From Botryllus schlosseri (taxonomy: Eukaryota), in assembly GCA_051294905.1 (NCBI GenBank), contig CM119371.1:16246001-16310000 (forward strand): DNA of 64,000 nt, in the 5' to 3' direction. Of the stretch, positions 15,931 through 60,849 are shown piece by piece (position 1 is the first letter of the stretch; each line of letters opens with the position of its first letter). The notes under the pieces are model-generated. The model did not search any database and was not told where the DNA came from. It saw only the letters and a program-made list of their open reading frames with translations. The position numbers and the translations under genes were made by a program.

Positions 15931-15970
15931 TATTCCCGAAGCTTTTCGGCTGACCCTCGTCAGGGGAATA
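15931..15970 (-). ncRNA. Second identical minimal hammerhead ribozyme (inverted pLTR), sense to the integrin pre-mRNA
   Basis: Exact reverse complement of 17303-17342. Confidence 0.86.
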
Positions 15971-16307
15971 TCGTCAGCAATAATGCGAGAATTCGAATAA
16001 CTATGTTCAGCAACAATATATATCGCTAATTATGACGGCACACAGAAAATATACCAAGTTAGGAAAACGAGAGAACTGAAGCGTTGGCATGTTTGCCAAT
16101 AGAAGACTTTTTGACACATGGCCTGGTTATGTTGTAGAACAAGCGGATTGTTATGCTGCGATTTCGAGATATATGATTTGACAGACGGTGGGATGTGTTC
16201 TTTAATTCGGTCCTGCAACCGTTTGGAAGTTCTCCCTACGTACCGACAATCGCAGTGGCACTTGAATTCATAAATGACGTTACTTTGTTGTAAAGCCGGA
16301 AGAACGT

Positions 16308-17160
16308 TGACACGTTCGTGATCTTCAATAATGAATCTGACTGTGGTTTATAGGAAGCCCACGTTTTCGGGTCATTACCTTCGATGGAGCTCTTTCAGTC
16401 CAAAAAGTCGTAAAATCAATTTAATCGGCACCTTGGTCCACCGGGCGTTGATGATTTGTTCCGAGGTCAAATTGAATAGTGAACTTGATTTTATCCGTAA
16501 AATTTTCATTGACAACGGATACCCTGAGTATGTCATCAAGCGGACAATAAATAATAAGTGTTAAGTCATCGGAATGATACCAAACCAAATGAAACCCACG
16601 AAGAAGTCTCTCGTGAAAATAGGGATGTGTACATTCATCTACCTTGGATTGGCCCGGTTTCTTATCGATTTGAGAAACAGATAACTTCAGCAGTCCATCG
16701 CTGTTATCCAGCGGTGAAAACCAATGTTGTTTTTACCACGATACCAATGTTTCCTGCAGTCCGAAAGGACGTTCTCCCGGCTTTACAGCAAAGTAACGTC
16801 ATTTATGAATTCAAGTGCCACTGCGATTGTCAGTACGTAGGGAGAACTTCCAAACGGTTGCAGGACCGAATTAAAGAACACATCCCACCGTCTGTCAAAT
16901 CATATATCTCGAAATCGCAGCATAACAATCCGCTTGTTCTAGAACATAACCAGGCCATGAGTCAAAAATCTTCTATTGGCAAACATTTACTAGAAAATCA
17001 TACATGTGCTGCTAACTACCACGAGGACATGTTCTCTGTATTGGCTAAGGGTCGCAATTTATTTCATTTGTCTGTTCTTGAGTCCACCATCATCACTATG
17101 AGTAAACCTAGTTTATGCCAACAGAAAGAATATGTGTATCATTTGAAAATCGCGCATTAA
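16308..17160 (+). pseudogene. Penelope-like RT C-terminus/thumb and GIY-YIG endonuclease remnant
   Basis: DTFVIF (tail of the YVDD motif), VYRKPT, NGYP, NVIYEFKC...YVGRTSKRLQDRIKEH, IGKHLLEN; internal deletion and a frameshift near 16558. Confidence 0.9.
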
Positions 17161-17302
17161 CTTGTTTGGCTTCGCTATCTCCATGCCAACGTTTCAGTTC
17201 TCTCGTTTTCCTAACTTTGTATATTTTCTGTGTGACGTCATAATTAGCGATATATATTGTTGCTGAACATAGTTATTCGAATTCTCGCATTATTGCTGAC
17301 GA

Positions 17303-17342
17303 TATTCCCCTGACGAGGGTCAGCCGAAAAGCTTCGGGAATA
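17303..17342 (+). ncRNA. Minimal type I hammerhead ribozyme in the PLE pseudo-LTR
   Basis: TATTCCC-CTGACGA-GGGTCAGCC-GAAA-AGCT-TC-GGGAATA: 7-bp stem I, intact core, palindromic loop III, predicted cleavage after C17335. Confidence 0.88.
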
Positions 17343-19214
17343 AATATGAATATTTTATTCAAATGTGTTATGAAGTTCTGTACTCCTAAGCGTCTCTTTG
17401 TGAACAATTATTTATCATTTATAGACGCACAGCAATCAATATATCCCGAAGTCACAGCGAAAATCGCATTCTTCTTGGGCTTTGGCTTGTAAATGCCCAT
17501 TATCGAAGTCTCTGCGAAAATCGTTTCTTCCGTGTTTTCGCTTTGCGAATGCCTAGCCGGGGCATGCCCCGGTAGCGCTCAAAACAAGCTTTCACTGTCT
17601 ATTCTCTCAAAGCCGCGCACAATTAAGAAACGGTGATTTACTCTCTACTATTCATAAATTTACCGAGCAGGTGGGGCAACATAGCCTTGTTGCCCTTAAG
17701 GTGTGATGTAACAATCGTATCTATATCTGAACTCGGTTAACTTAAATATGCGTTGAGTCGACCTTTGTTGTGTAGGTCGATTTTGATGGTGTTTCACACC
17801 ATGATAATTCATGAAACTTGGTTTGTTATGTCGTGATGGTGGTATTCAACACTTCTCCAAGTTTTAGGGTTTCTACTTAAAGATTAGGGTAGTAATTCCT
17901 ATTCCGAAGTTGAGTGTGTGCTGATCCGTCATGTATCGCAAACAGATTTTACTCAAAAGCCGGTATTGGTATCCATTGATTTTGACGATGTTCCATACCG
18001 AGATCGGTCATGACATTTGGCACGGTAAGTCTTAATGTTAGTATCGAACGCTGTACCAAGTTTTAAGTTTGTCACTGACTATGTTAGTGGTAATTCCGTT
18101 TCCTAAGTCGAGTGAGAGTTAACTCGTCATTTATCGCTAACAGATTTTACGCAAAGCTGGTATTGGTCTCTATTGATTTTAACGATGCTCCTTATACCTA
18201 GATCCGTCATGAGCTTTTGCACGGTATGTCTTGATTTCAGTATCGAACGCTGTGCCAAGTCTCGAGGTTGACACTCAATGATTAGGGCAGCAATTTTGTT
18301 ATCAAGGCCGAGTATGGTGGAGATATGCGCTGATCTGACACTTTAGCCTACCTAACGAACGCATTGCGGATTTCACGCACAAGCCGGTGTATCTGTGCTA
18401 ACGTTAACTGTGTTCCATACTGAGATAGGTGATGAGATGATGATATCATGAAACAGTGTACTAACATTCTCGGTTTGCATTTAAATATTTACTTTTATTT
18501 TATATTCTCCAATGTCTTGGCCTTCAAGCCATTTGCTGCTAATAGTTGTTTGATTATCGGTGTGAATTATAGTCTCGATTGGTCGTATCGCAGCATGCGA
18601 AAACTGTAGTACCAAGCTACCCACGCCAGTGGAAATACCCACGCCAGTGGAAATACCACTTCCGTGCAGTCGTGATAAACCCACATTATCGCGAAGTGGA
18701 AGGAGATGGGCATGGTCGAAAAACTCTCAAAATATCTTTAATGTGGCGTGGAACTGGCATATAAGGTACACATTTGAGCTTTCCGCATTACCCGTAAACG
18801 TTTCTGGCGTGCCAAGGAGTCATACGCGATCACCAGACTCGGTTCCAAGCCTGATACTCGGGCCGTGTTATTTTTGGCATATTTAGGGAGGAATTCTGGC
18901 GTCGATGTCGATCGGACTCGAATCCGCAGCCTATTGGCGTTGCAGCTGTGAATTATACCACTACGCTATCTCGCCACTCCTATCAGCACTGTTGATACAT
19001 ACAGTATTTTATTTCATTTGCCAGTTACTTCCATGCCATAGCCTATCTGTAAGACCTCGATTGTCCTCTATTTCTCTTGGTACGTAGCGCGAAAAGCCTC
19101 TAGATCTGATTAGTAGCAGTTTTCTAATAAGCGCAACTGCGTGTTACAACCAGAGACGCAACAGCCGATTACAATGCCATGGTAATCAACAATTTAAATT
19201 TCAATACAATCAAT

Positions 19215-27008: not shown

Positions 27009-27526
27009 GTTTGTTTGTTTTGATGTACATGGTGATTCGACTACATTGGTCATTTTACACCAGGTCGACACACTTTATTTTTGATTCCATATTCACCGAC
27101 TTTTAGCACGGCCCACATCTAGGCTTTTCATAAGACACCGCTTTTGCGGATCACGTGGCGAGGAGAAGCCTAGATAAGTCTACCTAGATAAGTCGACCTC
27201 GATAAGTCGACCTCGGTCGGACTCGAACCCGCGACCCATTGGTGTTGCAGCTGTGGATTATACCACTACGCTATCTCGCCACGACTACATTGGTCATTTT
27301 ACACCAGGTCGATACACTTTATTTTTGATTCCATATTCACCGACTTTTAGCACGGCCCACATCTAGGCTTTTCATAAGACACCGCTTTTGCGGATCACGT
27401 GGCGAGGAGAAGCCTAGATAAGTCTACCTAGATAAGTCTACCTAGATAAGTCGACCTCGGTCGGACTCGAACCCGCGACCCATTGGTGTTGCAGCTGTGG
27501 ATTATACCACTACGCTATCTCGCCAC
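27009..27526 (-). mobile_element. tRNA-derived SINE as a head-to-tail 244-bp tandem dimer
   Basis: 27039-27282 and 27283-27526 nearly identical; single GTTT tail at about 27009-27021. Confidence 0.88.
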
Positions 27527-27764
27527 GCAGGTTACGAATGGTCTGTAACGATGTACTCTTACTATTTGATAGTACTTAAATAGATTTCGCCTACTTGTAG
27601 TACTTACTCAAGCGACCATGTATGCAGACTATACTTTCACTTCAAAATAACAGTTCTTCAGGCAGACCTACTTACTTTTTCGCTCTCCGGCTATTGGAAA
27701 GTAGAAATGTGCTTTGGGTCATATGAATCGGGCGAAATAACCCTTGTATGACGATAACTGAATA

Positions 27765-35936: not shown

Positions 35937-36532
35937 ACTAATTTAAGCCTACACACAAAATTTGGTTCAATTCCAGCCAGTAACCGCTTTGGTACAGGAG
36001 AAGTAAGTTTCTATTTATTATATAAAAATAAATAATAAATTTTTTTTAAATTTTTTGTTTACCCCATGAAAGTGTTAGGCTGTCTATAGAAACGATGCTC
36101 ACCAAATTTGGTTCAATTCCAACCAGTGGAAGCGGAGTTATTGCCATCGAAAATTTGGATTTGAATAAAATAGTATCTACGGTGAGCACAACTAAAATAA
36201 ATAAACAAAGAATCGGTCACCGTAAATACTATTTTATTCAAATCCAAATTTTTCGACGGCAATAACTCCGCTTCCACTGGTTGGAATTAAACCAAATTTG
36301 GTGAGCATCGTTTCTATAGACAGCCTAACACTTTCATGGGGTGAACAGAAAATTTTCAAATTTTTTATTATTTATTTTTATATAATAAATATAAACTTTC
36401 TTCTCCTGTACCAAAGCGGTTACTGGCTGGAATTGAACCAAATTTTGTGTGTAGGCGTAAATTAGGTAACCTAACAATTTTATCAAGTAGCCAGTACGAT
36501 TTGAGAAAAAAAGTCATTTTTTAAGAGCCCTA
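35937..36532. mobile_element. Foldback palindrome, TAGGGCTCTT family, left end truncated
   Basis: About 250-bp inverted arms, spacer GCACAACTAAAATAAATAAACAAAGAATC; same family as 42976-43638. Confidence 0.85.
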
Positions 36533-37139
36533 ATGCACACTGAATGAAAAGTAAAAGAAGTCATTGAAATTTCCGGGACAGTGATCACAGTGGAACTGAT
36601 ATACATAAATTTGGCAATCTCTGGTTTCCGCATATCTTATGTTTAGGACACCGAATCCTTTGAGCACGGATTTGTAGGACGCACAACCTGGCCAAATCGG
36701 GCCCCTGGGTATCATGCGTAGGACGTGTTGTTGAAGTATTGGTATAGTGACTTGAGTGCGCTAACGCAGGCAGCTCCACAGCAGATGATGCCATATTGTA
36801 ATTTCGATTGGAATGTGGTTTTGGTTCCGCAAAATTTTGACGCTCATTGGTGGCGGCTACTTTTGAACATGCAAGATGCGGCTTTGCAACTAAGGCAAGA
36901 AGAGTAATGAGTCTACAAATAGACACCAACTTTGAAAATCTAGTCTGCAGTTACTGCAATGGCTATTGCGCGCGTTTCTTATGATGATTTCAAACATGTT
37001 GTTTGTGGTATTCATGGTGTTTGTCGACTACTATGGTCATTGGTCATTTACACCAGGCCGATATTTTCAATTTTTATTCCGTAACTGCCGACTTATAGCA
37101 CGGCCCACTTCTAGGCTTTTTGTAAGACACCGCTTACGC

Positions 37140-42941: not shown

Positions 42942-42975
42942 CTCATTACCACATCAAGAAGTTTAGTCTGTACAA

Positions 42976-43638
42976 TAGGGCTCTTCAAAAATGACTTTTT
43001 TTCTCAAATCGTACTGGCTACTTGATAAAATTGTTAGGTTACCTAATTCAAGCCTACACACAAAATTTGGTTCAATTCCTTCCAGTACCCGCTTTGCTAC
43101 AAGTGAAGAAAGTTTCCATATATTATATAAAAATAAACAATAAAAAATTTGAAAATTTTCTGTTCACCCCATGAAAGTGTTAGGCTGTCTATAGACACGA
43201 TGTTCACCAAATTTGATTAAATTCCAACTAGTGGAAGTGGAGTTATTGCCGTCGAAAAATTTGGATTTGAATAAAATAGTATTTACGGTGAGCACAACTA
43301 TAATAAATAAACAAAGAATCGGTCACCGTAAATACTATTTTATTCAAATCCAAATTTTTCGACGGCAATAACTCCGCTTCCACTGGTTGGAATTTAACCA
43401 AATTTGGCGAGCATCGTTTCTATAGACAGCCTAACACTTTCATGGGGTGAACAGAAAATTTTCAAATTTTTTATTATTTATTTTAATATAATAAATAGAA
43501 TCTTACTTCTTCTGTAGCAAAGCGGTTGCTGGCTGGAATTTAACCAAATTTTGTGTGTAGGCTTAAATTAGGTAACCTAACAATTTTATGAAGTAGCCAG
43601 TACGATTTGAGAGAAAATGTCATTTTTGAAGAGCCCTA
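42976..43638. mobile_element. Complete foldback MITE, ~315-bp arms
   Basis: TAGGGCTCTTCAAAAATGAC termini; TSD CTGTACAA/CTGAACAG (6/8). Confidence 0.88.
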
Positions 43639-43959
43639 CTGAACAGCTACAATTGACATCTACTACAATGAAATGAGCCAAGCGCCGCCCACGACACAAA
43701 ATTCGAACCATTACCGCCGTTTCCGAATATGCAGCACCCGTTATATTGAAGTGTTCTTGTCGGAAAGAATATTATCAACCAAACACTAAGGAACATCTAA
43801 CATAGCCAAGTCGCGAATTAGTTTCGCACAAAAAGTTTGATACGCCTAAGGCTCTAAAAGTAAGATTTAAAAAGAGAACTTTACCATGAGCACACGAGAA
43901 GAGAGTTGCTCTATACGTAACCTATACCGATCACGTTACTGGGTCTCTCCAGATATAGC

Positions 43960-55219: not shown

Positions 55220-55356
55220 TCATTTACATCAGGCCGATATTTTTCATATGTAGGCATATTCCGTGTCTGCCGACTTGTAACACGACCCACTTCTAGGCTT
55301 CTGTAAGACACCGCTTACACAATCAACTGCAAATATGTGGGTCGTGTCGGTGATGG

Positions 55357-55602
55357 TACCTTCCTACATTCCTACGGGCATACCTTCCTACGCTCTTACG
55401 TTCCTATGTGCATACCTTCCTACGTTCATTCGTCCATACGTCCGTACGTTCCTAAGTTTCTACGTGCATACCGTCCTACGTTCTTACGTTCCTACGTTCC
55501 TACGTGCATACCTTCCTACCTTCATACGTCCACACGTCCCTACGTTCCTACGTGCACACCGTCCTACGTTGCTACGTATACATACATTCCTACGTTCCTA
55601 CA
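55357..55602. repeat. Degenerate (TACGTTCC)n / (TACC/TTCC) microsatellite
   Basis: Visible 4/8-bp periodicity. Confidence 0.85.
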
Positions 55603-60495: not shown

Positions 60496-60529
60496 ACCCG
60501 AATATTTTCGGCTAACACTCGTCACCGGT
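60496..60529 (-). ncRNA. Degenerate minimal hammerhead motif (core GTGACGA)
   Basis: ACCG-GTGACGA-GTGTTAGCC-GAAA-ATAT-TC-GGGT on minus; a different core substitution plus a stem I mismatch. Confidence 0.6.
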
Positions 60530-60815
60530 AATCGTCAGCAACTAGTAGAAAATCGGAAATAACATTGTATATCAACAATCGTATGACAAAATATGACGTC
60601 ACCAGCATGAAATGTCGAATACAAGAGCGTTCAATGTACTATTTTAATATGGTACACGAACTCCTTCTGTAGACAAAACTTGGGCTGATGTATTTTGACA
60701 AAGATCGACTCCAAGGCTCACAAATGAAAGTGTGAGCGGCCCGTTCCGATGACGCGAAATTTGTCGTCGTTGATATACAATGTTCTTTCCAATTCTCTAC
60801 TAGTTGCTGACGATT

Positions 60816-60849
60816 ACCCCAGACGAGTGTCAGCCGAAAATATTCGGGT
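60816..60849 (+). ncRNA. Degenerate minimal hammerhead motif (core CAGACGA)
   Basis: ACCC-CAGACGA-GTGTCAGCC-GAAA-ATAT-TC-GGGT; one core substitution. Confidence 0.65.

Follow-up and report, generated by a model that had tools for sequence, protein, structure and literature searches.

The hammerhead ribozymes of Penelope-like elements (PLEs) have been characterised as slow, minimal motifs that lack tertiary contacts. The locus described here raises the question of whether such a hammerhead, with next to no helix II, is completed by a pseudoknot between its loop II and the strand just upstream of stem I, and whether that pseudoknot would help or hinder the ribozyme. The locus lies in a 64,000-nucleotide stretch of the Botryllus schlosseri genome (contig CM119371.1, positions 16,246,001 to 16,310,000), here called the window, in whose numbering all its coordinates are given. 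We put at roughly 75% the probability that the motif is a type I hammerhead in the pLTR of an endonuclease-bearing PLE clade, in which helix II is a single G10.1-C11.1 pair rebuilt as a six-base-pair Watson-Crick pseudoknot.

Ribozyme copies and host element

Four copies of a type I hammerhead lie in the window, in the pLTRs of two Penelope-like families, A and B. The copies and the remains of their host elements are as follows.

15931-15978, minus strand: A2 ribozyme, family A, intact, inside an inverted copy (covariance model; inverted repeat I8)
16108-16314, minus strand: inverted fragment of the same endonuclease region as the ORF below, part of the inverted 5'-truncated copy (tblastn, 93% identity to residues 69-137; inverted repeat I6)
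16558-17160, plus strand: 3' end of the family A Penelope-like ORF, GIY-YIG endonuclease, 200 amino acids, 5'-truncated
17295-17342, plus strand: A1 ribozyme, core intact
17346-17402, plus strand: the element's own ORF start, carried in the pLTR, with its ATG 10 nt past the predicted cut; the translation resembles the N-termini of P0002 and P0004
60496-60539, minus strand: B2 ribozyme, family B, decayed, with a G.U within the pseudoknot, C3 of the core replaced by G and the first stem I pair broken
60634-60768, minus strand: 3'-terminal 45 codons of the family B ORF, lying upstream of B2 (49% identical to family A residues 156-200 by tblastn)
60806-60849, plus strand: B1 ribozyme, family B, pseudoknot intact, core U4 changed to A (60821)

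The Pfam GIY-YIG match of the family A ORF is weak (E 5e-4, 20.8 bits, below the 22.6 cut-off). Its CCHH motif has C87, C89 and H143 invariant and H108 conserved. Ten longer homologues exist, six of which, of 827-850 amino acids, carry a reverse transcriptase domain (PF00078); the reverse transcriptase is thus known from homologues and not from the window. This order, a reverse transcriptase followed by a C-terminal GIY-YIG domain with CCHH, is the canonical feature of endonuclease-bearing PLEs of the Penelope/Poseidon type. By eye, the protein alignment contains no CxxC linker such as that of Neptune and Nematis, and the tree held no reference elements. A1 sits 150 nt past the stop of the GIY-YIG ORF and ahead of the ORF start, which with the inverted copy present is the pLTR position; such an inverted copy is the usual Penelope-like arrangement according to the available part of PMC8557442. 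From position 17402 a contig of X12 runs on in frame for ten residues that, in a by-eye translation, equal residues 21-30 of P0002. Families A and B are 78% identical over 112 nt around the ribozyme, a stretch that is partly coding, versus 49% over the 45 residues of the ORF end.

A covariance model built from the four window copies and six relatives found no fifth copy in the window, its next score being 13 bits against 64-79 for the four, which are its own training rows. Rfam returned no hammerhead family among its nine window matches at E up to 5, nor among six matches at E up to 10 in seven relative loci. A2, which was absent from the initial annotation, is identical to A1 across the motif. 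Both have the type I order of core CUGANGA, GAAA box and NUH site, which B1 (U4A) and B2 (C3G) lack; the latter two look decayed. The consensus core of family B is not seen here.

The window also contains other repeats. A long inverted-repeat, MITE-like family occupies 35938-36539 and 42968-43646, with arms that are 92-94% complementary, and gives rise to a spurious MIR841 match below the gathering score. An 82-nt element of tRNA-derived look (SINE-like, by eye) recurs at 18901-18982, 27206-27287 and 27450-27531, and a tandem array with an 8-nt period lies at 55337-55584.

Anatomy of the motif and its pseudoknot in related elements

In the coordinates of copy A1, all on the plus strand, the parts of the motif are the following.

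17295-17300: pseudoknot 5' strand, GCUGAC
17301-17303: GAU crossover from pseudoknot to stem I, invariant columns in an unguided alignment
17303-17309: stem I 5' arm, up to 7 bp, of which the inner 4-5 bp are common to all families
17310-17316: catalytic core C3-A9 (CUGACGA)
17317-17325: one-pair stem II (G17317-C17325) closing a 7-nt loop
17318, then 17319-17324: variable linker, then pseudoknot 3' strand GUCAGC, within loop II
17326-17335: GAAA box, palindromic AGCU loop III and UC; the cut after 17335 is predicted from the hammerhead consensus
17336-17342: stem I 3' arm

The strands that the initial annotation had paired, GCTGAC at 17295-17300 with GTCAGC at 17319-17324 and GCTGAC at 60806-60811 with GTCAGC at 60829-60834, lie exactly where it placed them, and the minus-strand copy at 60496-60539 does have GTTAGC, which keeps the pairing through one G.U. 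The differences it described between families in stem I and loop III are also as we find them. Its covariation across the two window families does not hold for the pseudoknot, which is identical in both; the cited changes concern stem I and loop III. The window thus gives conservation and not covariation. Moreover, in 200,000 trials with hexamers drawn at random from the window, 1.3% had a fully Watson-Crick-complementary partner 10-35 nt upstream, or 7.1% if G.U pairs are allowed. One ancestral hexamer match is therefore only modestly above chance. With identical strands in both families and damaged cores in both copies of family B, the window alone cannot show the pseudoknot, and the case is carried by covariation outside it.

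Relatives were fetched by protein alignment and comprise 79 metagenome loci (the best 80 of 117 confirmed) and four loci in genome contigs. These 79 loci (again, the best 80 of 117) yielded 66 ORF ends, seven with less than 220 nt downstream; by eye, the other 59 comprise 53 with the motif, three in which it is interrupted and three without it (L021, L060, L078). As 77 loci from five assemblies are near-identical copies, they were counted as one family (C). Further families are D (L001), E (L010), G (L080/L096), H (L081/L108) and I (L092). Seven of the eight families are tied to the endonuclease and were not picked by ribozyme sequence, while family I was found with a pattern that ignores the letters of the pseudoknot and is linked to the element by its N-terminus. 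The pattern search of G001 and G002 gave 22 matches, five of them real. In viral contigs, the protein scan hit none of 32 stretches, and pattern scans gave zero and five matches, the five having neither stem I nor element context. Pairwise endonuclease identities, family I left out, are 40-63%. Some of the Penelope-like copies (L080-L083 and L092, from G001 and G002) lie on contigs filed under bacterial metagenome-assembled genomes, which are probably host DNA; one 52-kb contig of this set has a repeated unit with six ribozyme copies.

The RNA alignment (MAFFT) has ten rows, one for each of the eight families plus A2 and B2. The complementarity, whose loss in other family members the initial annotation had named as grounds for giving up the pseudoknot, is kept in eight families in three sequence forms: GCUGAC/GUCAGC (A, B), UCUGAC/GUCAGA (C, D) and UGACGC/GCGUCA (E, H, I). 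Family G, with the 3' strand GUCGGA and one U.G, belongs to the second type. All six pairs form in all ten rows (60/60 cells) at a fixed offset, and five of the six show two-sided change. RNAalifold, run on the sequence-only MAFFT alignment, returned exactly these six pairs and nothing else, and combining a strand of the window type with one of the E/H/I type leaves only one or two of the six pairs. For the whole structure 95.3% of cells are paired, versus 24-45% in slid controls. The covariation score was reached by none of 500 shuffles and the count of pairs with two-sided change by 43 of 500, in controls that ignore the relatedness of the rows.

The protein tree reduces the two-sided changes to about two independent events. 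One concerns the first pair, which is either G-C or U-A (A+B clade, support 86/77); the other is a register shift in the E/H clade (97/95), the sole source of four of the five covarying pairs. This shift appears hard to get by chance, as it involves matched changes on both strands with all six pairs and the GAU kept. Among 43 distinct family-C copies, 33 keep six pairs, nine keep five and one keeps four; changes affect 14/516 positions in pseudoknot columns versus 87/1978 in other columns, with copies recurring across assemblies. These losses are ordinary decay, about as elsewhere, and are no test of selection. In a DNA run (X1), core position 7 (17314) is T in place of C in 5% of depth, and the linker at 17318 is C in 12% and T in 7%, with neither pseudoknot strand touched by the 40 variant rows listed, out of a longer set with 79 more. 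Taken together, the comparison argues that the pseudoknot is a real, selected structure, and a loop II/5'-flank pseudoknot with a stabilising role, as initially suggested, finds support in the covariation of the related elements.

The GAU letters are the same in all eight families, with a U always directly 5' of the pseudoknot strand. Stem II had been given as 1-2 bp; it is indeed very short, but consists of one pair (G10.1-C11.1; G.U in family G), without an extra base between A9 and G10.1, in all eight families. The linker base that follows G10.1 varies between families (G, U or A), loop II is 7 nt long in all ten rows, and 7-10 nt, stem I arm included, separate the pseudoknot strand from C3. 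Stem I has 4-7 bp, with two-sided changes at three of five pairs; a putative distal extension, in which the 5' flank would pair with the ATG region, is seen by eye in A, C, D and E and is absent in B. Stem III is one pair (A15.1-U16.1) and a 4-nt palindrome, which is present in all ten rows as AGCU, AUAU or AAUU. The predicted dimer duplex of AGCU has -4.3 kcal/mol and those of AUAU and AAUU only -0.2 to +0.4. At 40-63% protein identity the catalytic letters, the swap of C3-G8 to U3-A8 (family D), the NUH site and the three loop III palindromes are kept; most family-C copies have U3 with G8. Sequence comparison thus supports the pairing and its selection, the one-pair stem II, the palindrome and the position before the ATG.

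Several candidate features were rejected. A helix IV like that of the PK hammerhead is supported by A and B only (four and five pairs, versus 1, 1, 1, 1, 2 and 2 in the other six families). The upstream heptamer as the true catalytic core failed on inspection, since no pairing is possible between the bases that follow it and the arm preceding GAAA, and since the heptamer is missing from E, H and I; a non-circular permutation, as described in the available part of PMC10085705, was rejected on the same grounds. The statement that the upstream CTGACGA duplicates the core is right for family A and wrong for family B, whose cores are broken, and for E, H and I, which have UGACGC.

The predicted cut is followed by the ATG after 3 nt (family C), 4 nt (D), 10 nt (A), 14 nt (B, ATG 60860), 41 nt (E) or 46 nt (I). 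In these six of the eight families the motif thus directly precedes the ATG, while G and H are decayed in this region. A cut inside the start codon in E and H was rejected, the ORF start lying 41-46 nt downstream. Just past the predicted cut, hairpins resembling the histone 3' stem-loop occur in E (L010, 1319-1365, 27.7 bits), I (L092, 1532-1575, 26 bits) and H (L081, 2038-2082, 25.5 bits), all under the gathering score of 34; in L010 the hairpin repeats the ORF-start stretch. In two family-C loci (L002, 774 and 1273; L017, 1924 and 2771), an insert carrying another hammerhead with an ordinary stem II lies inside the family-C ribozyme. That hammerhead differs per locus, and the same stretch of about 13 nt over stem I and core is duplicated; the stem I/core region of the family-C ribozyme is possibly a preferred insertion target.

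Proposed working and alternative readings

In the proposed working, six bases of loop II would stack on C11.1 and pair with the strand directly 5' of stem I, one variable base bridging loop II. A single base is long enough, by the geometry of pseudoknots, to cross the deep groove of a six-base-pair helix. The GAU crossover would tie the pseudoknot helix to the outer end of stem I, placing the two helices side by side, so that the pseudoknot would supply the missing helix II and also do the job of the rate-raising loop I/loop II contact of natural hammerheads. With stem III too short alone, two copies should have to pair for cutting. The cut would release an uncapped RNA whose ORF starts 3-14 nt on (41-46 nt in two families). 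As the window copies are inverted, each transcript would have one sense copy, and dimers would have to come from tandem full-length elements or form in trans. We infer the helix stacking, the activation of cleavage, the use of dimers and any effect on translation. The helix is probably activating and not inhibitory for the predicted cleavage, because the pseudoknot takes the place of helix II in the PK hammerhead (PMC11300833) and the rate is lost and rescued with an equivalent pseudoknot in PMC3088659, as far as the available parts of these papers go.

A more far-reaching version appears doubtful to us. It would make these motifs a distinct PK subclass of animal retroelements, at about 45-48 nt the smallest yet and without helix IV. 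The ribozyme would be doubly gated, with the upstream strand freeing the core and a second copy building stem III. Cleavage would be restricted to full-length tandem transcripts and, falling 3-14 nt ahead of the ATG, would turn on cap-independent translation of the element. Many 'ribozyme-less' elements may then carry knotted hammerheads.

An unlikely alternative, compatible with the pseudoknot-completed ribozyme and ranked second to it, is a folding switch in which the upstream strand is mainly a decoy. Loop II GUCA would pair with core U4-G5-A6 and disable the ribozyme, and the upstream strand, transcribed first, would capture loop II and free the core; this strand may stem from a tandem duplication of the core block. 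The predicted loop II/core hairpin, which the predicted A1 fold contains, comes to -6.0 kcal/mol (family A), -3.5 (D), -3.2 (H and I), -1.9 (G), -0.3 (C) and 0.0 (E), against -5.9 to -8.1 for the pseudoknot duplex, two kinds of energy that are not strictly comparable. Among all 4096 hexamers, those doing as well as the actual one make up 0.17% in A, 0.37% in D, 1.1% in H and I and 14% in C. A competing off-fold between loop II and the catalytic core could thus be strong, in some families only. GUCA stays in the loop in seven of eight families, even past the register shift. However, shared ancestry means that the families are not several independent observations, the hairpin is absent in E and marginal in C, where the pseudoknot is perfect, and in E, H and I the upstream strand does not copy the core.

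There is a slim prospect that the fold, though real and under selection, acts in the pLTR mainly in a non-catalytic way, for instance in binding protein, in template use or in starting translation, and that it cleaves little or not at all in cells. PLE hammerheads are slow in vitro in the available part of PMC4209133. According to the accessible part of PMC11167929, an Anolis Penelope element required protein for cleavage and could insert in vitro without cleaving, and its RNA-seq reads showed no ends at the cut site. The place directly ahead of the ATG in six of eight families would suit such a role as well. On the other hand, the kept catalytic letters, the C3-G8 to U3-A8 swap, the NUH site and the palindromes fit selection for dimer catalysis.

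In two single-cell RNA runs (X23 and X24; 594 and 392 reads, second mates only, mostly sense), no pile-up of read ends was found at 17335/17336, in libraries not expected to show one. Many RNA reads run into non-element flanks, and the reads seem to come from few embedded, partly decayed copies. A-to-G differences occur at 19 and 14 places in these runs, among them window positions 17328-17330, 17342 and 17361, versus none in the DNA run X1; in the GAAA box they affect 17-43% of RNA reads versus 0.2% or less of DNA depth. They could reflect A-to-I editing of inverted copies, which would disable the ribozyme. Other RNA-only differences (17356, 17385, 17354) also point to few expressed decayed copies.

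That the pseudoknot is an inhibitory fold holding the ribozyme inactive, the second possibility of the initial annotation, is very improbable. Nested folding by standard programs does have the pseudoknot competing with stem I. However, no nucleotide of the core takes part in the helix, which can form alongside stems I and III and leaves stem II free as well; without it, helix II would be a lone pair. In the available parts of the sources, viral hammerheads with a one-pair helix II cleave at about 0.01 per min (PMC13725137), whereas equivalent pseudoknots raise activity 20- to over 100-fold (PMC3088659). Finally, a functionless chance complementarity arising from local duplication of the core heptamer can be given next to no weight: it draws on the identity of the family A upstream heptamer to the core, on the chance partners in 1.3-7.1% of trials and on the absence of covariation within the window, but it is largely refuted by a pairing kept through three forms, one of them not a core copy, at one offset in eight families.

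Comparison with known hammerheads

The comparisons below refer to the available parts of the cited papers. Like the minimal PLE hammerheads of Cervera and De la Pena 2014 (PMC4209133), the motif is of type I, lies in a pLTR, and has a short stem I and a palindromic stem III expected to need a dimer; the U3-A8 core variant of one family here occurs there too. In Fig. S3 of that paper, all 56 representatives have, by eye, a helix II of at least three pairs, most with an extra base before G10.1, whereas one pair and no extra base are found here. PLE hammerheads are usually without tertiary contacts in the available part of a review (PMC6155905), unlike the present clade with its covarying tertiary helix.

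In about 40% of hammerheads, stems I and II are joined by a pseudoknot (Perreault et al. 2011, PMC3088659). In a ribozyme tested there, with a one-pair stem II and a six-base-pair pseudoknot, shortening the pseudoknot slows cleavage 20- to over 100-fold, and activity returns with a compensatory change. The two features are shared, but that example is a type II metagenomic ribozyme and not a dimer type of retroelements, and none of three loop motifs taken from this clade was found in 11 supplementary files of the paper. Type I hammerheads of fungal RNA viruses lie before ORFs, and their self-cleavage has been linked to cap-independent translation (PMC13725137). They share the helix II of 1-2 bp and a cut few bases before the start codon (7 nt in one virus), but have a long helix III and are monomeric; no pseudoknot is described in the available part of that source.

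Naiads, which according to PMC8557442 lack canonical hammerheads, provide a separate observation. Among the consensus records in its supplement, five distinct ones and one near-duplicate can be read by eye as non-circularly permuted hammerheads of type CSG, which the accessible part of PMC10085705 knows from two sequences. Their core block forms part of a long hairpin's loop and is followed by the cleavage block and then by the GAAA block. Their three stems pair with differing sequences, the stem II arms being GGTCC/GGACC, GTCCC/GGGAC, GCCTC/GAGGC and GCCAC/GTGGC. Naiad-3_Nbra, listed in PMC8557442 as 'HHR_half_core', is among them. The link between Naiads and type CSG was not found in the literature searched.

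The literature already contains every ingredient of the present motif: hammerheads in PLEs, loop II pseudoknots with the flank of stem I, and the replacement of helix II by a pseudoknot. Their combination was not found in the literature searched. Lünse et al. 2017 reportedly contains about 150,000 short-stem-III hammerhead variants. The search returned no description of this build in a PLE, while Lünse 2017 and Weinberg 2015, both outside its coverage, may hold one. Current models, both those of Rfam and the PLE descriptors in print, miss the build. That compensatory changes have preserved a tertiary helix between families at 40-63% protein identity argues for selection on cleavage efficiency in this clade, and the pseudoknot allows a clean disrupt-and-rescue test.

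The closest known system is the PK hammerhead (PDB 8YDC; Zhan et al. 2024, PMC11300833), in which a pseudoknot stands in place of helix II over G10.1-C11.1 and which cleaves at 16 per min. Common to both are a six-base-pair pseudoknot over the single G10.1-C11.1 pair, a partner strand 5' of helix I followed by GA, and a standard core. In contrast to its 5-bp helix IV, no stable one is found here (1-2 pairs in six families, 4-5 in A and B). Its A-rich linker and the minor-groove triplex between helix IV and helix I are absent in all families, which have the 3-nt GAU instead. The six pairs here are all Watson-Crick, with a 7-nt loop, whereas the PK hammerhead has four plus two non-canonical caps and a 6-nt loop. 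Stem III is of the palindromic dimer type here and a 7-bp helix III in the PK crystal construct, and the setting, unlike that of the PK hammerhead, is an animal retroelement. Judged from its sequence, the motif would work like the PK hammerhead, yet it belongs neither to the PK family nor to the published minimal PLE type. As a stripped PK hammerhead, it may be used for asking whether helix IV and the triplex are needed.
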